Assembly: GCA_902619825.1 (NCBI GenBank)
Contig: CACNFT010000001.1
Location: forward strand, 135,529 to 199,528
Direction of reading: 5' to 3'
Origin: an uncultured Candidatus Actinomarina sp.
GTDB taxonomy: Bacteria > Actinomycetota > Acidimicrobiia > Actinomarinales > Actinomarinaceae
DNA length: 64,000 nt
Part shown: positions 1 through 22,138 of the stretch, one piece after another
Position numbering within the stretch: position 1 is the stretch's first letter
Layout: each line of letters begins with the position of its first letter
Notes under the pieces: generated by a model
What the model was told of the DNA's origin: nothing
Database searches by the model: none
The model's input: the letters and a program-made list of their open reading frames with translations, nothing else
Translations under genes and position numbers: made by a program

Positions 1-2325
1 GTTTTTGATTTCTTCTTCTAGTTGTTGTTTATTCTCAAGTTCTTCCTCTAACTTGGATATTGAATTGTTAAAATCTTCAATGTGGCTTTGAAGAGAAGTT
101 CTTTCTAGTTTTTCTATTTCTAAATCTTTACTAATAGGTTCTAGTAGTTTTTTTAGGCTTTTCTTCTTAGAGTTCAGATCTGTAGTGAGACTATTGAGTT
201 CTAGATTTTGCTCTTCTAAATTTAATGTGTCTTGATTTAAATCACCTAAAAGATCTAATTGCTCTTCTAAATCTTCACTTTCCATAAAAGCTTTCGAAAC
301 TTTATATTTTTTTATTAACTCATCAGACGCTTTTTTAATTTCTGTGATGCCTTCTTTCTTTTTGCTTAATTCTTCTTCTAACTTGCTCTTTGAATCATTT
401 AAGGTGTTTAATTCCTCTTCTAAATCTAATAAGTCATCTAACTCATCAAAATAATAGGAGAAATCCGAGTCTTTAAGGGTTACTTCACCCAATTTATATT
501 TTTTTGAGATTGTCTCATTTTTCTTTAAAATATTCCTTACATCAGAGGTATATGTCTTTTCTTTGAGTTTTAAAATTTTGATTTCTTCTTCTATAGACTG
601 AAACTGTAATCTTGCTGTTAAATTTTTAACTAGACTCTCATAATCATCATGAATTAAAGACACCTTAGACATTATCAATGTCTCATTTTCCACAATAATA
701 TCTAATAGATCTTCTAATTTTTTTATATCTTTATAAGATTTATGAACTTTTTTAAATGTCTTTTGATTTTCTTCTAAAATGCTCTGGATAGATTCTGTAA
801 TTGAAAATATATCATCTCCTCTATAGTCGATGTGCTGTGTGTCGGCTTTGTCTTCATTCAATCTTTTTAGCTTTTTCTTTGTCTCATTAGCGTTTTGTTT
901 GATGTCAAGAATTTCTTTATTGAGTTTTTTCAACAACGTTTTATCTTTTGCGGTTATTTTTTCTTTTTTTAATTGAGCTATAGTCTGAGGAGAAAAGCCA
1001 CAACTATCTATTGACTCTTTAATTTCTTGTTTCTTGTTTTTTATATCGATTTTAAGTTCTGCTATTTCATCTACTAAAGGTTGTGAATCAAATTCATTTA
1101 TCTTGTTAGAAATTGTAAGTATTTTGTTTTTATCACTTTCTTTTAACTTAGTTTTTTTATAGTACGCAACACTTGTTTTTGTCAGATTTAACTCTTCTTC
1201 TATTTCCGTTAAGGCAGTTTTTAAACTTTCAACTTTATCTATTTGTAAAAGAACTTTTTCGTTTGCATTTTCATACTCATCAAATGCACTGAGATAGGTG
1301 TCTATTTCCAATTCTTTTAAATTGGTCTTTTTGACTCCACCAATCCTTTCATCACACTCTTCCAATTGGATTTTTAAATCTACTAGATTATTTCCCTTCA
1401 CTTCAACCTCTGAAATAGATTCATTCAAATTTTTATAATCTGATTCTATTTTTACGAGCTTATGGGTTTTATAAGAATTGGTCTTAATGTTTTTCTTTTG
1501 AAGAGAATTTAGTGAATCTAGTAATTCTCCAATATTTTCAATATGTTTTTGTTGAATTTGTATTTCTGTTTTTGTAGATTCCAGTTCACTAATTTTTGTA
1601 TTCAAGCTTACTATATCTTTCTTTAACTTAGCTATGTCCTCTTCATCATTTTTAGATAAATTATCTCTATTTTCTTTCTCTGTTTTTTCAAGGTCTTTTA
1701 GCCTATCGTTTACATCTTTTAAATTGTTTTGAAGCTCTCCAATTTTTGTTAGGTTTTTAGTTCTTGTTGCACTCTCTGTTTTATCTGTCAACTTAGTTGC
1801 ATACTCAGCATAAGACATAACAGCTTCTTCAACATTTTGAGACATTGAACCTGACGCTACGCTTATTAACTTTATTAAATCATTTCTTATGTTTTTATCT
1901 AACGAGATTGAACCTTGTATGTCTGAAATCATCTTTGTTGATGTAAAAAAGAAGTTTGAAAATAATCTTCGCATCTTCTCAACATCTTCTATTTGAGGAT
2001 ATATATTTTTTATCTGTTCATTAATATTTTTATCCCACTTACTTCTTGAAATTGATAGCTTGTCTCCATTGCTGTCAATATTTAAGATAACTCCTCCAGA
2101 TCCAATTTCTGTTCGTGACACTGCAGTTGGTCCGTCATAATCATATTGAAAATAGTGATCGCTTTTTGTGGGTATTCCAAAAAGCAAATGATAAAGAGAC
2201 TTCACAATAGATGATTTGCCAGAACCATTATCTCCAAGCAAAACATTTATATTAGGTTCGAATGAAATTGGCTTGAAGTCAACTAGGGCACCGTATTTTA
2301 GGATTGATAATTCTTCAAACTTCAT
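1..2325 (-). CDS. SbcC/Rad50-like ATPase, N-terminal 775 aa only; the gene continues past the window start
   Basis: Uninterrupted minus-strand frame from an ATG at 2325-2323 to the window edge; I spot-checked the translation at 1-60 and 1201-1260. The N-terminus MKFEELSILKYG...INVLLGDNGSGKSS has a Walker A motif. It is followed by hundreds of residues of K/E/L-rich coiled coil, as in SbcC. The start overlaps the sbcD stop (TAATG). Confidence 0.6.
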   Translation of the reverse strand, partial: MKFEELSILKYGALVDFKPISFEPNINVLLGDNGSGKSSIVKSLYHLLFGIPTKSDHYFQYDYDGPTAVSRTEIGSGGVILNIDSNGDKLSISRSKWDKNINEQIKNIYPQIEDVEKMRRLFSNFFFTSTKMISDIQGSISLDKNIRNDLIKLISVASGSMSQNVEEAVMSYAEYATKLTDKTESATRTKNLTKIGELQNNLKDVNDRLKDLEKTEKENRDNLSKNDEEDIAKLKKDIVSLNTKISELESTKTEIQIQQKHIENIGELLDSLNSLQKKNIKTNSYKTHKLVKIESDYKNLNESISEVEVKGNNLVDLKIQLEECDERIGGVKKTNLKELEIDTYLSAFDEYENANEKVLLQIDKVESLKTALTEIEEELNLTKTSVAYYKKTKLKESDKNKILTISNKINEFDSQPLVDEIAELKIDIKNKKQEIKESIDSCGFSPQTIAQLKKEKITAKDKTLLKKLNKEILDIKQNANETKKKLKRLNEDKADTQHIDYRGDDIFSITESIQSILEENQKTFKKVHKSYKDIKKLEDLLDIIVENETLIMSKVSLIHDDYESLVKNLTARLQFQSIEEEIKILKLKEKTYTSDVRNILKKNETISKKYKLGEVTLKDSDFSYYFDELDDLLDLEEELNTLNDSKSKLEEELSKKKEGITEIKKASDELIKKYKVSKAFMESEDLEEQLDLLGDLNQDTLNLEEQNLELNSLTTDLNSKKKSLKKLLEPISKDLEIEKLERTSLQSHIEDFNNSISKLEEELENKQQLEEEIKN

Positions 2326-3665
2326 TAATCATCCTTGTAACTTAAGCCGTTTATTATTCTTGAAGCTATTTTTATAGAATTGTTAATAATCTCTGAAGAC
2401 TCTTGCTCATCTATTTCGTCTGAAATAACTTTTTGTTCTGTAAGGGGAATCGATTTTGGCAAAATACCAAACTTTTTATTTAAATTTTTTTTAAATTCTT
2501 TTTTGGTTAAATGTTCAAAAACAGTCTCATTAATAAAGTTTTCTAAATCGTCTATATCTAGACCTTCTAGTTCTGTAACTATAGATTCAATTGCTTCTAG
2601 TGAGTCTTCTTTGGTGGAGGGTTTTAGTTTATTAATACATTTTATGATATTTAAATCTTCATATTCTAACTCCTCATTAAGACTTGTTAAGAGCTCTTCT
2701 TCTAAAATAAGGTTGTAATAGTCAGATTTTCCTTCTAATTCGACTGTTATCATCAAAAACTTACCTGGGTTTTCATTCTGAATTGATTCAATTTTTTTGA
2801 CAGTATTATTAACAATCTCACTTATGTCTTGATCTTTTTTGACTTCTGTTACTGCTGTAAAAAACCTAGCATCATCTAATGTCTTAAATGTTAACTCTGG
2901 TTCAAAATTTTTTACTTCAACTAAATAACACCCTTTTCCATCTGAAATATCATTACAAGTTTCTGACGGTTTAGTGCTTAGCCCCTGTGGATTTCCAGGG
3001 TAGACAGCTAAATATGGATCTTGAATGAGAATTTCTCTTTTGTGGATATGTCCAAATGCCCAGTAATTATATTCACATTTATCCAACATAGCTTTATTTG
3101 TCGGAGCATAGTTATGTGTTTCATCAAGCTTATATGTATTTTCATAACTTGTATGAATTAAACCAATGTTGAAGAAATCTCTGACTGGCTTTGGAAACTT
3201 TTCTACAAGTTTTTCTGTTACTACTTTTTTTGGGTAGCTTTGACCATGGATAGCTACTTTAAAATTATCAATAGTAAAAGTATCTGCATTTTTAGCTGGA
3301 AATACATAGGTGTTTTCAGGTAATTTTTTTGCTTCAAAAGATGTTAATAAATCAGAATCAACATCATGGTTTCCTAAAACAATGTAGATGTCAATATTTA
3401 ATTGGTCTAACTTTTTTAAAAAGTTTTTAAATTTTTTAAAATAATTGTCACTAGAGGGCATGTCGTCATCAAATGTATCTCCAGCGAGAAGAATGAAATC
3501 TGGTTCTTCTTCTTCGGCTAAAGCAACTAGATTGTCGAGAACCTTAATGGGAGAACGTCTTACTCGAATTTCTTGGTCAGGATCCAAAAAGCTATATTTT
3601 TTTGTTATTTCTCGCCCTATGTGTAGATCAGAAATGTGAATAAATTTAAATTCTTTACCCGCCAT
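2325..3665 (-). CDS. sbcD: SbcD/Mre11-family DNA repair nuclease (calcineurin-like phosphoesterase), 446 aa with an acidic C-terminal tail
   Basis: Phosphoesterase motifs I (HISDLHIG), II (LLAGDTFDD) and III (VLGNHD) are present. The gene sits immediately upstream of the SbcC-like ATPase and overlaps it. Confidence 0.75.
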   Translation of the reverse strand: MAGKEFKFIHISDLHIGREITKKYSFLDPDQEIRVRRSPIKVLDNLVALAEEEEPDFILLAGDTFDDDMPSSDNYFKKFKNFLKKLDQLNIDIYIVLGNHDVDSDLLTSFEAKKLPENTYVFPAKNADTFTIDNFKVAIHGQSYPKKVVTEKLVEKFPKPVRDFFNIGLIHTSYENTYKLDETHNYAPTNKAMLDKCEYNYWAFGHIHKREILIQDPYLAVYPGNPQGLSTKPSETCNDISDGKGCYLVEVKNFEPELTFKTLDDARFFTAVTEVKKDQDISEIVNNTVKKIESIQNENPGKFLMITVELEGKSDYYNLILEEELLTSLNEELEYEDLNIIKCINKLKPSTKEDSLEAIESIVTELEGLDIDDLENFINETVFEHLTKKEFKKNLNKKFGILPKSIPLTEQKVISDEIDEQESSEIINNSIKIASRIINGLSYKDD

Positions 3666-3733: not shown

Positions 3734-4186
3734 ATGGTTAAGATAGAGACAAGAATTCAACTAGCAATTAAAGAGATTCTTGAAGAAGAAACCTGGAAAC
3801 ATCTGAAATCAAATAATAATTTCGACAAAGTGTTATCTATTGCTTCATTGATTAAACCTTTTGATGAAGGTCCTGATGTGTGTTATGAAGACTGCAATGG
3901 CATGTGTTTTGGTTGTTACGATGGCTATAAATACTCTCTTGATTGGAGAGCAAGTTATAACCTCCGAGAAAAAAAGCCTTTTAGTTTAATAACAGATCAC
4001 GAACTAGATATGTTAATTGATGCAATAGACGATAAGGTACACACATGTGATGAGTGGTGTTCAGATTTTATCTGTTACAAATATGAAGCTACAAATTGTA
4101 AGACTTGGTACTGTGAGAACTTATTTCTTAAAGAAAAAAAGAATATTAAATACTGTTCTAACTGTAGAGGACTTGCTCATATCTAA
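3734..4186 (+). CDS. Hypothetical Cys-rich protein, 150 aa (16 Cys, several CxxC/CxxxC clusters)
   Basis: Complete ORF with Cys clusters CYEDCNGMCFGCYDGY, HTCDEWCSDFICY and YCSNCRG. I recognise no family. Confidence 0.5.
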   Translation: MVKIETRIQLAIKEILEEETWKHLKSNNNFDKVLSIASLIKPFDEGPDVCYEDCNGMCFGCYDGYKYSLDWRASYNLREKKPFSLITDHELDMLIDAIDDKVHTCDEWCSDFICYKYEATNCKTWYCENLFLKEKKNIKYCSNCRGLAHI

Positions 4187-4187
4187 A

Positions 4188-5216
4188 TTAGACTTTTGTT
4201 AGCGAAGAAGAATATTTGCTTTCTAACGCAATTTTTATTTTTGATCCTATAAGTTTCATTAATGGAACAGTCACTGCATTACCTGCTTGTTTGTATAGTT
4301 GACCATCTGCAACATCAGTAGGCAATTTAAAAGACTTGGGGAATCCTTGAAAATTAAAACACTCTTTCGGAGTTAATTTTCTAAATCCCTTGTCATCAAT
4401 AACTAGTGGTACATTGTGACCACCAGTACCCATGTTTGCAGTCAATGTAAACATTTCATTACTTTGATTCTCTCTTACATAAATTCTTCGCCATTGATAT
4501 GCTGTTTCAGGATTTTTCATAGTTGCTTTTAATTCTTTATACATATACTTATCTGGCCCATAGTAATATTTTTCATCGACATCAGTTTCAAGCAGATCTC
4601 GAATACTTCTATTCCTTTTTCTGTTTTTAGGAGGATATACCGCATCAAAGTTAGCACTGGCTAATGGAAACTCACGATCTTTTCTTTCTTCCCAGTCAAC
4701 TTCATCCCTGAAGCCAACGATAATTGTTCTTTCTCTGTTTTGAGGAATATTGGTTAACTCTGAAGTGTTTAAGATATTCCAAAAAACTGAATACCCCAAT
4801 ACCCTTAAAGTGTCTTTAATGACTTCTGCTGTCTTACCTTTATCATGACTGGAAAGCCCTTTTACATTTTCTAACATGATTGCTTTTGGTGGTGTGTCTA
4901 ATTCTTCAATTAATCTGGCTATTTCAAAAAATAAATTACCTCTAGGATCCCTAAACCCTTTTCTGTATCCAGCAACAGAGAACGCTTGGCAGGGAAAACC
5001 ACCAACAAGAACATCTACTGGCTCAAGATCTTTTCCTTGGAGTAAATGAACATCATCTTCAATTAAATGTTTTCCATGATTTAACCTATAAGTTTTAGAA
5101 GAATACTTATCAAACTCATTTGCCCATGTAGTTTTAAATCCAGCCTGTTGAAATCCTAATTCAATTCCACCAACACCAGAAAATAGTCCACCAACTGAAA
5201 ATTTTTCCATAGGCAA
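4188..5216 (-). CDS. DNA (cytosine-5)-methyltransferase
   Basis: C5-MTase motifs are all present: I FSGVGG, IV GFPCQ, VI ENV, VIII QNRERTIIVGF, X GNAVTVP. At 342 aa it has the size of small type II m5C methylases. Confidence 0.85.
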   Translation of the reverse strand: MPMEKFSVGGLFSGVGGIELGFQQAGFKTTWANEFDKYSSKTYRLNHGKHLIEDDVHLLQGKDLEPVDVLVGGFPCQAFSVAGYRKGFRDPRGNLFFEIARLIEELDTPPKAIMLENVKGLSSHDKGKTAEVIKDTLRVLGYSVFWNILNTSELTNIPQNRERTIIVGFRDEVDWEERKDREFPLASANFDAVYPPKNRKRNRSIRDLLETDVDEKYYYGPDKYMYKELKATMKNPETAYQWRRIYVRENQSNEMFTLTANMGTGGHNVPLVIDDKGFRKLTPKECFNFQGFPKSFKLPTDVADGQLYKQAGNAVTVPLMKLIGSKIKIALESKYSSSLTKV

Positions 5217-5258
5217 AGTTTAGTGACACACTCAGACAAAAAATAATATACTGACTAT

Positions 5259-5846
5259 ATGATTGAGAAAGAAATTTCTTTAATTAGAAGTGGGAAGCTT
5301 GTTTTTAAAGGCCATAGATACGAAGATTTTGAAAGTGAGAAGTTTGCTGAATTATTTTTCTCTTGGATGCAATATAAAGAATCAGGAACTTTTGTAAAAC
5401 AAAGAGCAAATATACCAGAAGGATTAACTGAAGGCCTAGTAGCCAAAGATATACCCAATGTATTCAGAAAGATTGAAATTGTAAATAATCGTGATAGACA
5501 GCCATCCAAATTTGATTGTTACAATATTGATTCAGATGAAATAATTGAGGTTAAAGCGTGTTCTGTTCCTAATGATTTAACTAGCTGGAGCCCTAAACCT
5601 TATTTTGATAAACTGTATTTTGTTGATTTTTCTTCTTTGGATGGAAGTTACAAAATTTACAAAATTGACATCAATGGTGAGGAAATAAAAGAAATTAAAG
5701 TTAGTGAGAATGAAACATTTGGAGATCAGGTTAGTAATCAAAGAAGACCTCGCTTCAGTGTATTTGATACTTTCATAAGACCTAGGTACAAATGTTCTGG
5801 CGTTCCTGTTTTTGAGGATGATTTAAAAAAATATCTAAAAATTTAG
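5259..5846 (+). CDS. Hypothetical protein, 195 aa; candidate cognate restriction endonuclease of the adjacent MTase
   Basis: It is divergent from the C5-MTase across a 42-bp gap. It contains a DSDEIIEVK segment compatible with a (D/E)xK nuclease motif, but I recognise no family. The call is positional inference. Confidence 0.4.
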   Translation: MIEKEISLIRSGKLVFKGHRYEDFESEKFAELFFSWMQYKESGTFVKQRANIPEGLTEGLVAKDIPNVFRKIEIVNNRDRQPSKFDCYNIDSDEIIEVKACSVPNDLTSWSPKPYFDKLYFVDFSSLDGSYKIYKIDINGEEIKEIKVSENETFGDQVSNQRRPRFSVFDTFIRPRYKCSGVPVFEDDLKKYLKI

Positions 5847-6038
5847 TGACTTTTTAGGTGGTAGATAGTGGATGGCTTACAACAGTATTTAGATAACAAC
5901 CCACAACTAAAAGAATATGTAAAAGATGGTGTAATACTTTGGGATAAACTTGGTGTCGATATTGACGAAGAAAGAAAACAACCTGATTATGATGATGACT
6001 TGACTTTGTTTATGATTATGACTGTATTTCTATAATTT

Positions 6039-6566
6039 TCATCCAAAATAATCCTTGTCTCTTGGAGTTAAGGGTGCTCCGTATTGTCTATAAGGTGCTG
6101 CGTCTTCAATTCTTTTTTCACGCGCAATTCTCTCTTTATTAGTTTCTTTTAGATTCGTATCCTTATAATTCTTGATTTTCTCGAACTCTAAATTAAAAAA
6201 TTCTAATTTTTTACTAAGTTCATCTTTATCAATTCTAAAGTCAATTTGTCCTCCCTGAATCTCATCTAAAGTAAGCTCGACAAGTTTTTTTAGTTTTCTA
6301 AGTAAGCGAAGAAATTTTCTATCTGTAGATGTTGTTTTAAGTTGCTCAATCTCAGCTAACCTATTTAATAACTCATTTACAATCTTTTTTAAACTGGCTT
6401 CTTGAATAATTTCCATATCTGTCATGTTTTTTCCATGCTTGATAAGATTTTCCTGTCTTTCAAAATTCTCAACAGATTGTTTTTCTCGAATTAATCTCTC
6501 TTTATCTGTTTCACGGATACCAGTTTCTAACCAGTTTTTCATTTTCTCTTTTTTATTTTCATCCAT
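6039..6566 (-). CDS. Hypothetical coiled-coil protein, 175 aa
   Basis: Complete ORF that is K/E/L-rich with heptad-like periodicity, divergent from the Hsp70-like cassette. Confidence 0.5.
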   Translation of the reverse strand: MDENKKEKMKNWLETGIRETDKERLIREKQSVENFERQENLIKHGKNMTDMEIIQEASLKKIVNELLNRLAEIEQLKTTSTDRKFLRLLRKLKKLVELTLDEIQGGQIDFRIDKDELSKKLEFFNLEFEKIKNYKDTNLKETNKERIAREKRIEDAAPYRQYGAPLTPRDKDYFG

Positions 6567-6591
6567 AATTGCTGCCTATTAATATTTAATT

Positions 6592-6903
6592 ATGGTCATG
6601 AAAAGTAAAACAAAAAAGTTAAAAATAGATTTTAAAAATATTGAGACAGACCTTTTAAAAATCAACAAAAGTATCTGCGATCTTTACCAAAAAATAGAAC
6701 ACCTTGATAAAGAAGAGCTTAAGGATGAGATAAAGAATTTGTTAGAATCCGCTGAAATAAATATTGTCAATAATACTGAAGGGTACGATAACTGTTTTAT
6801 AACATCAAACGGTGCTGAAAATAAAGTTAACAGACCGGCATTTGTTGATAAATATGGGAATTGTCTAGTGCAGGGATATAGAGAAGTGAAGAAAAAAGAG
6901 TAA
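6592..6903 (+). CDS. Hypothetical protein, 103 aa, first gene of the Hsp70-like cassette
   Basis: Complete ORF whose stop lies 5 nt before the start of the downstream Hsp70-family gene. Confidence 0.45.
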   Translation: MVMKSKTKKLKIDFKNIETDLLKINKSICDLYQKIEHLDKEELKDEIKNLLESAEINIVNNTEGYDNCFITSNGAENKVNRPAFVDKYGNCLVQGYREVKKKE

Positions 6904-6908
6904 CATCT

Positions 6909-9158
6909 ATGGGTAAACAAGCCTTAGGATTTGACTTTGGTACTTCAAACTGCACCGTATCAATTTTTGACTCAGATAAAGGGGTGGTCGAAACACTTCC
7001 TATCTCCAATTACTCAGAGTCAAAAAAAAGAAGCTTAGCTAATCAATCATTATTTCCTTCAAAAGTTGGTCTTAATGATGATTTTGAATATGTATTTGGT
7101 GATGAAACAAAAAAATGTGAGAGAGATTTTGTATGGGATAACTCTAAAAGGCTGTTGGAACACAATACTCCAATTTATAGAGGAGGAGTTCACAAAAAAC
7201 CTATTTGGGTTGCAATAGGAATAATGGCTGGAATTTTTAAGGAACTCAAAAACCTATCAGTAAAAACCTCTTCTCCTATGGTTATAACAGTTCCAGCTAA
7301 CTCATACAGTACACAAAGAAGCCTTACGAGATTAGCTGCTGAATCATTTAGCTTTAATGTAGACCAATTAGTTTCTGAGCCTTGTGCGGCCGCTTTAGGA
7401 TGTTATGAGTATATTGATAAATTAAAACACATTCTAATTGTAGATGTTGGTGGTGGAACAACAGATATAGCTTTGATAGAAAATGATTTTGGAACACTAA
7501 AAGAAATAGCAATTGAAGGCTTGAAACGATTTGGTGGTATAAATATTGATCAAAAAATGTATGAGAAATATAAAGTTGACTTCGAATTGTCAACTGATTC
7601 AGAAAAATTACTTTTCAGGGATTTACTAGAAGATGTAAAAATAGAATTATCTTCCAAGAAAAAGTCTAAATTAATTTATAAAGATCAGGTAGTTGAAATT
7701 ACAAGAGAAAGTGTTGAAAAATTAATAAAAAAAGATATTGAAAGTTTAGATAAAACAATTGATAAGGTTTTAAAAAAAGGAAAAGTTGAGATAAAGAACA
7801 TTGAGGCTGTTTTACCTATCGGGGGCTCTTCTAATATTCCTGCAATTAGAGAACACCTGAAAAAAAAGTTTAAATCTAGATTAATAAATCTTGATTTTGA
7901 TGAATCAATAACTGCAGTTGCAAAAGGTGCTGGAATAGCATCAGCTATAAATGCAAAGATTATAAAAGATCTAAACTTTAAACAATGTTTAGAACATAGT
8001 GTGGGTCTTAGAATTTGGAGTGGCACTAAAGAAAATAAAATTTTTAAACCGATGCTAGAAAAAGGGTCTGTATTTCCAGCGTCTGCAGTGCAAACCTTTA
8101 TCGCCGATACAGATGAATCTATAGTTGCTTTGTATGAAAGTACTTCAGGTAAATTAATAAGCAATGATACAAAGTTAATTATTGAAAAAAGAATTAAAAC
8201 TGGTGTTATGCATGTTGATGTTGAACTCACTTATGATGATGATGGAAAAATAGACATCAAAACATATAACATAAATAGAGGAGAGTGGGGAAAGTTAGGT
8301 GACCTAGGTGATAGTAGTAAGGACTCTCAAAGTTATATAAAAAATTTACGATCAAAATCCCGAGAACAAGGAATGAATCTAAGGATTGACAGTATCAATT
8401 ATATAGATTCACAATTAAATCAAAAAAAATTAAAAGAATGGTCAAACGAGTTCTTAGGAAAGTACAAAAAATACAAAAAAGTATCGGAAAAAGTAAAGAG
8501 CATTTTTAGTAAAGAAGTCAAAGATGAATTTATCTCTGTTAATAATGAGGATCTCTCGAATGTTGTTGTTGAAATTAGCTCAGAGGCAGAGTTTGGAAGT
8601 ACTAATGACGCATTTATGTATGCTGAAGGTGTTTTAAAACGTACTTTAAGAATTGTCTTTTCAATTGCAGGATACGAAAAAAAAGGTCATTTCAAAAGTA
8701 TTCATGACTTGTTAAGTGAATGTGATGTAGTTTATAAAACAAGACAAAAGTTATTGCCAGAACAGCCCCTTGATGACATAAGATGGTTAATTAAAGTTCT
8801 ACAAAGATCAAGATATTTAACTAATTTAGGACATATTAACACTGATGAATTAAGAAGTGATCTTGACTCATTGAGAACAATTTTAAATAAATATAGTCAT
8901 GGAGTTAGGTCTAGTTTTTTTTCAGAAGTATTCAATGATTCCTTAGATGAATACGACTCACTTATAGAAAGTAACATACTAGATGAAGTCTACAAAGAAT
9001 CTAAATATTCTGCACAAGATGTAGTTTTGATTTCTTCGAACATAGCTTCGTTAATATCATCTTTAATAAACACAAAGGTTTATATAGGCACAGATAGAGA
9101 CAACCTTATCAAAATGTTAGAAAGTATGTACACTTTGGTACAAACATATAAAGAGTAA
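6909..9158 (+). CDS. Non-canonical Hsp70-family (actin-like ATPase) protein, 749 aa, with an extra C-terminal helical domain
   Basis: Hsp70 motifs are present: phosphate-1 GFDFGTSNCTVS, phosphate-2 IVDVGGGTTDIALIE, adenosine PIGGSSNIPAIREHL. The ~370-470 segment resembles the substrate-binding beta-sandwich. The last ~280 aa form a helical domain unlike the DnaK lid, and there is no EEVD motif. Confidence 0.75.
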   Translation: MGKQALGFDFGTSNCTVSIFDSDKGVVETLPISNYSESKKRSLANQSLFPSKVGLNDDFEYVFGDETKKCERDFVWDNSKRLLEHNTPIYRGGVHKKPIWVAIGIMAGIFKELKNLSVKTSSPMVITVPANSYSTQRSLTRLAAESFSFNVDQLVSEPCAAALGCYEYIDKLKHILIVDVGGGTTDIALIENDFGTLKEIAIEGLKRFGGINIDQKMYEKYKVDFELSTDSEKLLFRDLLEDVKIELSSKKKSKLIYKDQVVEITRESVEKLIKKDIESLDKTIDKVLKKGKVEIKNIEAVLPIGGSSNIPAIREHLKKKFKSRLINLDFDESITAVAKGAGIASAINAKIIKDLNFKQCLEHSVGLRIWSGTKENKIFKPMLEKGSVFPASAVQTFIADTDESIVALYESTSGKLISNDTKLIIEKRIKTGVMHVDVELTYDDDGKIDIKTYNINRGEWGKLGDLGDSSKDSQSYIKNLRSKSREQGMNLRIDSINYIDSQLNQKKLKEWSNEFLGKYKKYKKVSEKVKSIFSKEVKDEFISVNNEDLSNVVVEISSEAEFGSTNDAFMYAEGVLKRTLRIVFSIAGYEKKGHFKSIHDLLSECDVVYKTRQKLLPEQPLDDIRWLIKVLQRSRYLTNLGHINTDELRSDLDSLRTILNKYSHGVRSSFFSEVFNDSLDEYDSLIESNILDEVYKESKYSAQDVVLISSNIASLISSLINTKVYIGTDRDNLIKMLESMYTLVQTYKE

Positions 9159-9162
9159 AAAA

Positions 9163-9849
9163 TTGATTTTCAAAAGAAAAATAATTGACAGCCTTAAAAT
9201 ATCTCAAAAAGATGAGATTAATGAACTAAAAACTGAACACACAAAAGAACTAAAGCAAATAAAAAAAGTACATGATCAAGCTCTCAAAAACGTTTCAGAA
9301 ACTTATGTTGAAGAACTAGAGATAAAAAAATCTGAATATAGAAAAAAATTAGAAGATTGGAAAGTAAGAGCTGACAAACATTTACAAGATGAGATTGATA
9401 AATACAAAAAAGAAATAGGAAGAGAAGAAAAGAAAAAAACTGAAATTGAAAGAAAAGAAATACAAAAGAAAATGGAAAATGAAATCTCCTTATTAATAGC
9501 CAAATTGGAAGAAAAAAAACAAAAGGAATTAAAAAAATTAGAAGAAAAATATAAAGATACTGGAGTGCTTACTGAGAAATTACAAAACTATTTCTCTAAT
9601 TTTTTAGGAAAAGAATATGATGATATTTCTTTCAAAGAGCTTGAAAAAATTCTAAAAAATGAACTAGAAGAACTAGTTAATGAACTTGATGAGGTAAAAA
9701 AAGAGATTGATACTAAGAATGAAGTTGTCAAAGAATTTAATGAATTAGCCAAAGAAATGAATTATTTACATGAAGAGACAGTAGAGAAAAAGAATGAACT
9801 CTATGAACTAAAACAAGTAATTAGAAAATTGAGAGAGGAAAATTTTTAA
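9163..9849 (+). CDS. Hypothetical K/E-rich coiled-coil protein, 228 aa (TTG start)
   Basis: The ORF begins 4 nt after the Hsp70-like stop. It is strongly charged, helical and low-complexity. Confidence 0.45.
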   Translation: MIFKRKIIDSLKISQKDEINELKTEHTKELKQIKKVHDQALKNVSETYVEELEIKKSEYRKKLEDWKVRADKHLQDEIDKYKKEIGREEKKKTEIERKEIQKKMENEISLLIAKLEEKKQKELKKLEEKYKDTGVLTEKLQNYFSNFLGKEYDDISFKELEKILKNELEELVNELDEVKKEIDTKNEVVKEFNELAKEMNYLHEETVEKKNELYELKQVIRKLREENF

Positions 9850-19646: not shown

Positions 19647-20657
19647 TTAACGTGAACTAAACTCAAAAATTACATCCAAAGCTTCTTGAAATGAATCAAC
19701 AGCGACAATTAAAGTATTTTCATCGGAATAAGCATCTGCTTCTGAAAAGTTAGCTGTCGGAACCAAAATCAAAGATGCGTCAGCTCGTTTTGCAGCAATT
19801 ACTTTTTGTTTTACACCTCCGACAGGCCCTACTGATCCATCAATTTCAATTGTTCCTGTTCCAGCAATTTTCTCTCCATGTGTAATGTCACTTTCAGTTA
19901 ACAAATTATAAACATTAAGAGCCATCATCATTCCAGCAGAGGGGCCTCCAACATTTCCAGTTTTGATATCGATATCAATAGGAAATATAAATTTTTGATT
20001 TGGTGTTGAGGCTAGAAATCCTACCATCGGTTCATTTTCATATTCAACATGTTCTATCAAAGTTGTTTTAAACTGAGTAGGTTTATCACCTCTAATTAGA
20101 CCAATTTCTACTGTGTCACCAATCTTATAGGTTCTGAGTAATGATATGAATTCTGAAGTGGATTTAATATTTTCATTATTGATTGAAACAATTAAGTCAT
20201 TTTTAAAGAGTTTGTCTTTTACAGGTGAGTCATCAAGCAAACCTACAACTAAAACACCGTCACCCTCAGATGTTACATCATAGCCAAGCGAATCAAGAGC
20301 TACTGCGATTGCGACATTTTCAGAGTTCATCATATTTTGCATGCTAATCTCTGATAATTCCTGAGGTGTTACACCATCCGGTAAAATAACCTCTCTAGGA
20401 TAAAGATCAATTTCATTATTTAAATTTGCCCAAGCATAAACAAAATAATTAGCTTCATCTCTTCTTACAGTCAATTGAAATAAGTTACCCTCAGAATCAA
20501 ACGTTTTTGTGTCACTGACTTCAATATTCCACTGATAAGGAGGGCCGGGAGACATGAAATAATAGTCTGATTTTGCAAATCCAAAAGGAAAAATAACGAT
20601 TAAGTATGTAACAAGTATAAGTTTTAATACTTTATTCTTTTGAAAGAATTTCTTCAT
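19647..20657 (-). CDS. PDZ domain / Lon-like (S16) protease, YlbL-like
   Basis: Signal anchor, a PDZ-like middle region and the Lon catalytic GPSAG motif. Confidence 0.7.
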   Translation of the reverse strand: MKKFFQKNKVLKLILVTYLIVIFPFGFAKSDYYFMSPGPPYQWNIEVSDTKTFDSEGNLFQLTVRRDEANYFVYAWANLNNEIDLYPREVILPDGVTPQELSEISMQNMMNSENVAIAVALDSLGYDVTSEGDGVLVVGLLDDSPVKDKLFKNDLIVSINNENIKSTSEFISLLRTYKIGDTVEIGLIRGDKPTQFKTTLIEHVEYENEPMVGFLASTPNQKFIFPIDIDIKTGNVGGPSAGMMMALNVYNLLTESDITHGEKIAGTGTIEIDGSVGPVGGVKQKVIAAKRADASLILVPTANFSEADAYSDENTLIVAVDSFQEALDVIFEFSSR

Positions 20658-20687
20658 ATGTAAATGTTAATTTAAACAATTATATAT

Positions 20688-20720
20688 AAAAAAAGAGCCG
20701 GTTAAACCGGCTCTTTTTAG
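20688..20720 (-). terminator. Rho-independent terminator (bidirectional hairpin) after the ABC-transporter operon
   Basis: AAAAAAAGAGCCGGTTAAACCGGCTCTTTTT: a GC-rich stem flanked by an A-run and a T-run. Confidence 0.55.
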
Positions 20721-20734
20721 TTATTCAAATTATA

Positions 20735-22138
20735 TTATGAACAAGGTCCTACAGACCAATCATAAGCACTTGCAGATGGACCTACATAGTCTTTTTTAAC
20801 TACTACAGCTCCACTACCAACACTTCCGTCTGGTTTTGTAATGGTACTTGCAACATCAGGTAATCCTGATCCTAATTTCTTCTCAGGCATCATACCGTCA
20901 GAACTAACTGTAACGTTAGTTGCTGCTCTTCTAATACCTGCTTTAGTAAGATCTCCACCTTTTACAGCTGCTTCAAGTACACCCTTTAGGTGATATTGCG
21001 AACCCCATCCTCCAACGAAGAATGTGCTTGCACTATCGGTTATTTGACCCAGTGTTTGTCTCATTGTTGCGTGACCAACAGTATCTGCCTCATAAGGTGC
21101 GATACCAAAAGACATTGCATATATGAGTCCTGATTCAAATAAACCTTTTACAGCTGAACCTTCAGCCACAAAAGCATCGTTATATGATGTTCCTAGGAAC
21201 ATAGCAAAAGGAGTAACTCCTTGTTGTGCTGCTCCACCAGCAACTTGAGGTGCTACGGCTAATCCAGTTGCTAAGAAATAAGCGTCAACTGGTTTTGTAA
21301 CCAGTAAACCAACGGCTTGAGTAACGTCAAACTCTGTTGGAGGTGCTAAATATTCCCATGCAACTTCAACGCCTGCATTCGCAGCTGCTGCTTTAATTCC
21401 AAATGCGAAATCCTTACCATAGTCACTTTCGTAACCGATGATTCCAACAGTGTTTATATCAACTAAACCACCTGTTAGAGGACCAGCATTTGCAGATGCC
21501 CAATCCATAGCATTCATTCCGTCTGCACAATATTGTGTTCCGAATTCAATTACTGTAGAAGCATCTACGCCTTTATAGGCCCAACCTGACCACCAGCTCA
21601 TTGGTACTGCTACCATGTCATCTTCATTTAAGTTATCTAAAATAAATAATGTCTGCGGTGTTCCAAGTGACATAGAGAAAGCTGCAACTGAATCTTTGAG
21701 TGAGTTATAACCTTCTAAATGTTTTTGTGGATTGTATGACGCATCAAATCCTTCTCGAATTGCCACACTATAATCTCCAATTCCACCTGTTGAATTAGCC
21801 CAGAGCCAAAATGCTCTCTGTCCAATATCGAGAGCTGGCCCAGCAGCTCCGAAAGGTCCTGAATAGTCATTTAACATTCCTAGATAAATACAACCTTTGG
21901 TTGGATCTGCTCCAGTTGGAATGTTAGATATAACTTCGGGACAAGCCTCTTCTGTAATTCCAACACCTGTTTTTACTGTACCGGCTGTTGTTACAGCTGG
22001 TGAGTCAAGTGTTTCAGTTACTTCTTCTGCAACTACCTCTTCTACTTCAGAAGTTTCTTCGGTAGCTCCACCACAAGCAACAAGAATTAGGGCTAGAATC
22101 GAAAAAATTATGATTCCTTGCTTACGCAATGGTTTCAT
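20735..22138 (-). CDS. ABC transporter substrate-binding lipoprotein (LivK/branched-chain-type family)
   Basis: Lipobox LVACGG followed by an acidic linker and a periplasmic-binding-protein type I fold. Confidence 0.75.
   Translation of the reverse strand: MKPLRKQGIIIFSILALILVACGGATEETSEVEEVVAEEVTETLDSPAVTTAGTVKTGVGITEEACPEVISNIPTGADPTKGCIYLGMLNDYSGPFGAAGPALDIGQRAFWLWANSTGGIGDYSVAIREGFDASYNPQKHLEGYNSLKDSVAAFSMSLGTPQTLFILDNLNEDDMVAVPMSWWSGWAYKGVDASTVIEFGTQYCADGMNAMDWASANAGPLTGGLVDINTVGIIGYESDYGKDFAFGIKAAAANAGVEVAWEYLAPPTEFDVTQAVGLLVTKPVDAYFLATGLAVAPQVAGGAAQQGVTPFAMFLGTSYNDAFVAEGSAVKGLFESGLIYAMSFGIAPYEADTVGHATMRQTLGQITDSASTFFVGGWGSQYHLKGVLEAAVKGGDLTKAGIRRAATNVTVSSDGMMPEKKLGSGLPDVASTITKPDGSVGSGAVVVKKDYVGPSASAYDWSVGPCS

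Follow-up and report, generated by a model that had tools for sequence, protein, structure and literature searches.

The 64-kb window analysed here, the whole stretch of Candidatus Actinomarina DNA, carries three tightly packed genes built around a 749-aa Hsp70-like protein, and our analysis indicates that they very probably belong to a dedicated accessory Hsp70 module. The conserved core of this module is a pair, formed by the Hsp70-like gene and a small open reading frame (ORF) in front of it, with lineage-specific additions around it. We consider the chances about even that the module is a self-contained, specialised Hsp70 machine whose nucleotide cycle would control a fused HEPN-like domain, with a role in conflict or stress. 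In the ORF list, the three genes are:

6592..6903, plus strand: small partner gene, 103 aa, ATG start
6909..9158, plus strand: Hsp70-like gene, 749 aa, ATG start
9163..9849, plus strand: K/E-rich coiled-coil gene, 228 aa, TTG start (ATG in the related locus L001)

Only 5 nt separate the small ORF from the Hsp70-like gene, which is probably translationally coupled to its small partner, and 4 nt separate the Hsp70-like gene from the coiled-coil gene. An earlier, sequence-only reading of this DNA had reported these ORFs, their positions, gaps and several motifs, all of which are present in the ORF list and translation. Between the window and L001, omega was 0.11, 0.06 and 0.17 for the 103-aa, 749-aa and 228-aa ORFs respectively; because purifying selection acts on all three, none is a chance ORF.

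As had been proposed from sequence, the 749-aa protein has an Hsp70-family nucleotide-binding domain (NBD) followed by a beta-sandwich. It matched Pfam PF00012 (HSP70) with an E of 2e-33 over residues 120-556, above the gathering score, and the DnaK structure 5obu in the Protein Data Bank (PDB) with an E of 4e-22 over residues 6-480, an alignment covering both NBD and beta-sandwich; it thus has the two hallmarks of the Hsp70 superfamily, the catalytic Asp/Lys/Glu/Thr set of the NBD and a beta-sandwich substrate-binding domain (SBD). The protein is also non-canonical, as claimed, since its scores lie far under the equivalog cut-offs of DnaK (TIGR02350, 111 bits vs 822.55; PRK00290, 104 vs 648) and HscA (TIGR01991, 106 bits vs 708.55), although HscA profiles are among its best matches (E 1e-30). 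The DnaK catalytic set (D9, K80, E157, D179, T184/T185, D186 and G305/G306) is invariant in 21 aligned family members, because of which the protein looks ATPase-competent from its sequence; the phosphate-1 motif DFGTSN is likewise invariant in the family. The protein divides as follows:

6909..7943, plus strand: nucleotide-binding domain, residues 1-345 (Pfam HSP70/MreB matches, 5obu alignment; omega 0.04)
7944..8288, plus strand: linker and beta-sandwich substrate-binding-like domain, residues 346-460 (DnaK SBD-beta alignment)
8289..8588, plus strand: weakly lid-like helical segment, residues 461-560 (Pfam/TIGR DnaK profiles; low model confidence)
8589..9158, plus strand: novel C-terminal helical bundle, candidate HEPN-like domain, residues 561-749 and stop

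The two domains of E. coli DnaK are joined by a conserved hydrophobic linker, DVLLLD (PMC13580251), which is not kept in the 749-aa protein. In the alignment its counterpart is DLNFKQCLEHSV, which is the same throughout the family; the equally invariant F357-x-QCLEHSV365 (bases 7977-8003) stands in place of the DnaK VLLL/DVTPL linker. This motif, FxQCLEHSV, has a single occurrence in the window and was used as a probe specific to the family; viral sequences were scanned with the linker/SBD alignment. Beyond the SBD, Pfam and TIGR DnaK profiles align up to residue 556-559 (profile position 593 of 596-599), and the AlphaFold2 (AF2) model has low confidence over residues 461-560, with a predicted local distance difference test (pLDDT) score of 30-75. 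In proteins of one subgroup of the family, E (P0071-P0074; L007 8001-10334), alignment to DnaK places an insertion of ~46 aa between the apparent first two SBD strands, adjoining the expected substrate cleft, which hints at a subgroup-specific ligand recognition.

Secondary matches to MreB_Mbl (E 5e-17), ParM_N and a PHROG 'partition protein' family would suit an actin-like filament or segregation ATPase of the ParM/MreB type. Such cross-matches are expected within the actin/Hsp70 fold, however, and Hsp70 profiles score far higher, in an alignment that runs on through the linker and the beta-sandwich SBD. Nor was a phage or plasmid context found: IMG/VR held 0 relatives with the family-specific motif and 50,697 phage records gave only ~24%-identical DnaK-like matches, plasmids not having been searched with the family protein. 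We regard an actin-like ATPase as the least probable of the explanations considered here.

Because residues ~461-556 align with the lid region of the Hsp70 profiles, the novel C-terminal domain comprises ~190 aa (about 561-749). The sequence-only reading was therefore right that this domain is not a DnaK lid, and too generous in giving it ~280 residues. It had also pointed to a missing EEVD tail, which is uninformative for a bacterial protein, that tail being a trait of eukaryotic cytosolic Hsp70s. In the AF2 model the domain is a compact bundle, not a set of repeats, and appears to consist of four helices in an up-down arrangement, helices 2 and 3 being separated by an insert, as in the Abi2/Swt1-like branch of HEPN domains. 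The R-x6-H stretch RSRYLTNLGH, which had been offered as a clue, is not conserved. Across the 21-member alignment the invariant residues are instead D623, R625 and H664, with N660 near-invariant:

8775-8783, plus strand: D623-x-R625, invariant
8886-8900, plus strand: N660-x3-H664, H664 invariant and N660 nearly so

This D-x-R/N-x3-H arrangement looks, from conservation, like an active or ligand site rather than a docking surface. The HEPN motif Rx4-6H is absent in the family, which has L/T-N-x3-H instead, with the nearest R/H at -8; HEPN families that keep the His and have lost the Arg are on record (PMC3710099). Foldseek of the C-terminal model against the PDB returned no matches, and no relatives of the domain were found outside the Hsp70-like family. 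Whether the domain has a HEPN fold is in our judgement evenly balanced, while activity as an RNase is predicted with little confidence and is unlikely. The EDLRF and LNNDAH motifs of the C-terminal domain recur in P0207, a 164-aa protein that is homologous to this domain but stands alone, and for which Pfam at E<=1 gave only noise.

The probable GrpE-likeness of the 103-aa protein had been overlooked in the sequence-only reading. The protein consists of a long helix, a second helix and then a 5-stranded beta-sheet, and its model is well folded (pLDDT 85) and superposes on GrpE along its entire length. The C-terminal signature of GrpE is KFGVexI ... FDP.H ... R-[VIL]-[VIL]-RPA-x-V, and a colinear hhalign alignment pairs the small protein with these motifs at a score of 20.1, compared with 10.6 +/- 1.7 for shuffled sequences (0/200 reach it) and 10.2 for the reversed sequence. 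F69, R81, A83, D86 and G95 are invariant in the small protein (motif NRPAFVD). Of the signature, R81 and A83 are invariant; FDP/His is not conserved. Many orthologues start 2 codons downstream and have 101 aa. Several profile searches weigh on the other side. hhalign against a 13-sequence GrpE profile gave Prob 2.1% and P 0.023, against a single GrpE sequence it was negative, PF01025 (GrpE) had no match at E<=10 for 19 members of the small-protein family, and a hidden Markov model search of the PDB was negative. On the whole, we find it likely that the small protein is a minimal GrpE-like nucleotide-exchange factor; such a partner would make the module a self-contained chaperone-type machine. 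P0075, an unrelated metagenomic protein of 883 aa, has two Hsp70 NBDs with a truncated GrpE-like insert between them (FKKYDVTVIK...GDEYNP...NGYMYDGKVISPEYVNV), indicating that shortened GrpE modules on atypical Hsp70s exist elsewhere. A JGI label on the small-protein homologue P0229, 'DNA-binding protein H-NS', was judged spurious, as the DNA-binding loop is absent; H-NS presumably resembles P0229 only in the RPAxxYVD stretch.

The same two genes could be read as a toxin-antitoxin-like pair, in which the HEPN-like C-terminus would act as toxin and the small protein, seated in the SBD, as a proteic antitoxin or inhibitor. Consistent with such a pair are the tight two-gene coupling with the small gene first, the position in variable islands and the frequent occurrence of HEPN domains as toxins of toxin-antitoxin and abortive-infection systems (PMC3710099). 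Yet the whole small protein superposes on GrpE with colinear motifs and is well folded, unlike typical labile antitoxins, and the canonical HEPN Arg is missing with no MNT partner present. We hold a toxin-antitoxin pair to be improbable.

The sequence-only reading was correct in proposing a dedicated module with tightly coupled partners, but it took the trio as the unit, when it is the small ORF and the Hsp70-like gene that occur together in 52/52 loci. The coiled-coil gene is confined to A and B, the subgroups closest to the window, with two paralogues in B; it was found in every subgroup A locus with sufficient downstream sequence, at lengths of 146-261 aa. Its products have mutual E values of 1e-25 to 1e-81 within group A and of ~1e-7 between A and B, a link made mainly through a conserved C-terminal helix motif (KKNELYELKQvIRKLk). 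In subgroup C an unrelated, convergent 310-aa gene is always there instead, while lysA, RNase J or a NERD helicase adjoins the pair in subgroups D and E. A further constant neighbour, in subgroup A only, is encoded divergently to the trio:

6039..6566, minus strand: 175-aa coiled-coil-rich gene

It was present in all subgroup A loci having upstream sequence and accompanied the module in no other subgroup. Its identity between the window and L001 is 95%, far above that of the trio (59-87%), so it is evolutionarily separable from the trio; it is possibly a regulator or accessory component. Searches of Pfam, PADLOC, NCBIfam and PHROGs gave no family match for the 228-aa and 175-aa partners, and Pfam at E<=1 gave only noise for the 175-aa, 228-aa and 310-aa partners.

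We also compared the module with its flanks. At the DNA level the window and L001 are 95-99% identical across SbcC, SbcD and the genes for the 150-aa and 175-aa proteins; exactly where the small ORF starts (~6600), identity falls from 95-97% to 79-87%, and it stays low throughout the trio. Synonymous divergence is about 1 in the trio and 0.07-0.24 in the flanks. Together with the low dN/dS, this drop indicates that the trio is one exchange unit of functional genes whose coalescence is much older than that of its surroundings. In other genome pairs too, the module genes are more diverged than SbcD, lysA or nuc484.

The wider setting recurs across subgroups and includes lysA, a NERD-UvrD helicase, a RecB/Cas4-like nuclease, SbcCD, RNase J and a Cys-rich 150-aa gene. 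Since divergent relatives share this chromosomal neighbourhood, the pattern suggests a long (vertical) residence of the module in one chromosomal region, with single genes varying among close relatives. In six of six neighbourhoods chosen irrespective of the module, by anchoring on neighbouring core genes, the module was absent; these represent two sites and are not a genome-wide sample. Beyond 9875, four Actinomarina contigs match the window at 97% identity, but past the GMC oxidoreductase they have other genes in place of the module. Because most subgroup A loci adjoin lysA and not the GMC oxidoreductase, absence beside the latter (L095-97) is weaker proof of accessory status, which was therefore re-tested with lysA-anchored loci: two contigs with a lysA at least 90% identical to that of L001 had no module at the lysA site. 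One of these carries a cluster of a PLD-SNF2 helicase (PADLOC PLD_Helicase 2e-53, DrmD 5e-48) and a D12 methyltransferase, the other unrelated genes. The module is thus optional in Actinomarina-type genomes and lies in a variable, defence-rich region. The sequence-only reading had asked whether the trio might be a syntenic core locus in related genomes with an ordinary chaperone context: the same region (lysA, RNase J, NERD helicase, SbcCD) does surround the module in divergent relatives, but with no ordinary chaperone context, and the module is missing from all of the module-blind neighbourhoods.

Optional presence, deep allelic divergence and a defence-rich location lead us to favour a conflict or stress role, most likely abortive-infection-like or an RNA-level shut-down, rather than general protein folding. 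The main rival is a client-specific chaperone without a conflict role, similar to HscA-HscB-IscU. The Hsp70 derivative and its own exchange factor would then serve to assemble, remodel or fold a single cellular substrate, for which the coiled-coil protein or a nearby nuclease complex may be candidates, and the C-terminal bundle would dock a client or partner. The intact ATPase residues and SBD, the strong purifying selection, the single chromosomal neighbourhood across deeply diverged subgroups, which suggests vertical inheritance, and the lack of defence-model matches all agree with this rival, and DnaK derivatives in which the lid is altered are common in bacteria, most of them uncharacterised (PMC13580251). 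It fits poorly, however, with the absence of the module from close relatives at both known sites, with an allelic divergence much deeper than that of flanking genes, with partner genes that differ between subgroups and with invariant polar residues more suggestive of an active or ligand site. Moreover, a streamlined genome of ~1 Mb would hardly be expected to keep an optional 3.3-kb operon for routine housekeeping. We therefore rate the client-specific chaperone as rather unlikely.

In the conflict or stress machine that we propose, the GrpE-like small protein would reset the ADP-bound ATPase and, as a private exchange factor, may insulate the module from the housekeeping DnaK-DnaJ-GrpE. The SBD would bind a specific peptide or protein signal, candidates being the C-terminal helix of the coiled-coil partner or a foreign protein, and the nucleotide cycle would govern the HEPN-like C-terminal domain, which might bind or cleave RNA. 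In some lineages the coiled-coil protein could act as an adaptor or client. The boldest form of this proposal is a chaperone-gated RNase, in which the SBD would sense a phage-derived or misfolded polypeptide, the ATPase and mini-GrpE would time the switch and the HEPN-like domain would cut RNA, leading to arrest; we offer this as a speculative and quite unlikely possibility. As to the anti-phage or stress function suggested in the sequence-only reading, the variable, defence-rich setting agrees with it, and the evidence consists solely of location and evolutionary pattern; from these an anti-phage role seems possible, with the balance somewhat against it.

The family is small and sharply bounded. 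Among 5.8 billion proteins, members with 66-100% identity came first; further sets stood at 40-48% and 32-41%, after which scores dropped to those of generic Hsp70s. The GC content of all family loci is 28-35%, and every one stems from a marine metagenome or single-cell assembly. The window has a GC content of 33% and is nonetheless actinobacterial, because its UPF0182 protein falls in the same 90% cluster as RDX33495.1 of Candidatus Actinomarina sp. HD9-500m-PIT-SAG01. No J-domain ORF was found in 55 sources. A scan of genome contigs with the full-length alignment, keyed on generic Hsp70 motifs, yielded only unrelated atypical Hsp70 loci (L015-L094) from Vibrio, Myxococcales, Saccharibacteria, Nitrospira and others. 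These form a broad population of atypical Hsp70 loci, whose proteins have SEPCAA and GGGTTD-type motifs and which have no grpE within 10 kb.

The remaining neighbours in the window, a restriction-modification (R-M) pair and an SbcCD-like pair, are as previously described:

1-3665: SbcC/SbcD-like region (together with L001 1-6541, L104 1570-9292 and L106 9516-14047, the intervals covering the SbcCD-like, nuclease and NERD-UvrD genes)
4188-5216, minus strand: C5 methyltransferase of the R-M pair
5259-5846, plus strand: Bsp6I-like endonuclease of the R-M pair
5868-6035: 55-aa ORF accompanying the R-M pair
6567..6591: 25-nt divergent intergenic region between the starts of the 175-aa gene and the small ORF, the left edge of the trio's recombination unit

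The intergenic region has TAATAT 7 nt upstream of the ATG of the small ORF, which suggests leaderless or overlapping divergent promoters. The R-M block (window 4260-6029, comprising the methyltransferase, the endonuclease and the 55-aa ORF) is an insertion that is missing in L001 and L010 and present in L009, a presence/absence polymorphism without obvious flanking repeats. The SbcC/SbcD-like pair (SbcC-like protein of 1063-1065 aa, with weak LmuB matches), the RecB/Cas4-like 484-aa nuclease and the NERD-UvrD helicase (PADLOC RTasNERD-Hel 2e-32) are repeatedly near the module, each singly present or missing among close relatives; as a group, these genes could constitute a distinct cluster for defence or repair. 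The Cys-rich 150-aa protein (window 3734-4186, plus strand) has no family match and belongs to a 630-member 90% cluster; its gene is near the module in several subgroups, and immediately upstream in the subgroup D locus L134.

Other variable segments were observed around these sites. At the lysA-adjacent site of a related single-cell genome, L141 11667-19937 holds a DrmD/PbeA/BrxH-like PLD-SNF2 helicase, two uncharacterised genes, a D12 N6-methyltransferase and a 477-aa gene, a defence-type cluster. Immediately upstream of the GMC oxidoreductase (window ~9875; L095-L098 ~19700-21260) lies a rearrangement breakpoint with three different gene sets, the other side of which is 97% identical. A DarT-Macro pair and a PD-(D/E)xK gene (L007 2158-4290) are found 4-6 kb upstream of a subgroup E module, and a GmrSD_C-type nuclease with 108-aa and 857-aa uncharacterised genes (L106 2-3784) is divergent to a subgroup B module. 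No tRNA, flanking repeats or Rfam families marking an island were found.

A ~1-Mb streamlined marine genome that keeps an optional operon of this size, with deeply diverged alleles swapped as a unit, is notable, as is the fact that its hotspot holds restriction or defence genes in relatives. For Hsp70-like parts of conflict systems, predictions are all that exists to date. The present module is compact and self-contained: it joins a GrpE-like partner of ~100 aa to an Hsp70 that looks active and bears a fused orphan domain, in which four polar residues are invariant or nearly so. Specific questions can thus be put to the test in vitro, namely whether 100 residues suffice for a GrpE, whether the cycle of an Hsp70 can control an effector domain fused to it, and how an Hsp70 functions when it lacks a J-protein and its linker is rewritten. 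Very little is known of immunity in the abundant, uncultured actinobacteria of the ocean, and the module, if it is a defence system, would extend that knowledge; and if the chaperone-gated RNase were true, Hsp70 would be a pattern-recognition switch within an immune or stress effector of a new type, evolved in a bacterium that ranks among the smallest free-living ones.

Housekeeping actinobacterial dnaK lies in a dnaK-grpE-dnaJ-hspR operon. That context is absent here, as had been noted, with no second Hsp70, GrpE or J-domain gene in the 64-kb window. The module shares with DnaK-GrpE-DnaJ the NBD catalytic residues, a beta-sandwich SBD and a co-encoded partner of probable GrpE-like fold with an RPA-x-V motif. 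It differs in having FxQCLEHSV instead of the VLLL linker, a new domain in place of the lid bundle and a partner that is half the size of GrpE, under Pfam detection and first in gene order; it has no DnaJ or HspR and is accessory rather than essential. E. coli HscA-HscB and HscC are comparable: these Hsp70 paralogues are likewise specialised, have a shortened or altered lid and work with dedicated partners. Unlike HscA-HscB, the module is far under the HscA cut-offs and lacks an HscB-type J protein, and no isc genes were present in its fetched neighbourhoods. HscA functions without a nucleotide-exchange factor, whereas the module appears to encode its own.

The statement that no described defence system is alike was borne out by PADLOC-DB v2, where no system matched the trio (best BrxL, E 0.005, and PDC-M61B, E 8e-4 over ~45 residues), but related predicted systems exist (PMC11090510, PMC7159879). 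In type III CoCoNuT systems, the predicted CnuD is an Hsp70-like protein with HEAT-like repeats and degenerate Walker A-like motifs (PMC11090510). Likeness extends to an Hsp70-like NBD/SBD followed by a helical C-terminus, coiled-coil proteins, a HEPN theme and R-M-rich neighbourhoods. In the module, however, the catalytic residues are all kept, the Hsp70 itself carries the HEPN-like bundle as a fusion and the C-terminal domain is without relatives outside the family; neither the McrB-like NxD GTPase (CnuB) nor McrC/DUF2357 (CnuC) appeared in the Pfam annotation of any fetched neighbourhood. Predicted GAP1-N2 GTPase-centric conflict systems, mainly of actinobacteria and firmicutes, contain Hsp70 and GrpE (PMC7159879) and thus share the pair of Hsp70 and nucleotide-exchange factor, but are defined by the GAP1-N2 GTPase with FNIII/DnaJ or TPR proteins, and no GAP1-N2 GTPase, FNIII, DnaJ or TPR gene was found in any neighbourhood of the module. 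With the defining components absent, membership in either of these described systems is very improbable. Sacsin, which combines DnaJ and HEPN, provides a precedent for joining chaperone and HEPN parts (PMC3710099). Literature and library searches returned no description of a fused Hsp70-HEPN-like protein with a ~100-aa GrpE-like partner and without a GTPase or J-protein. The ingredients of the module are therefore already known, from Hsp70-like and GrpE proteins in predicted conflict systems and from the chaperone-HEPN arrangement of sacsin, and what appears to be new is their combination.

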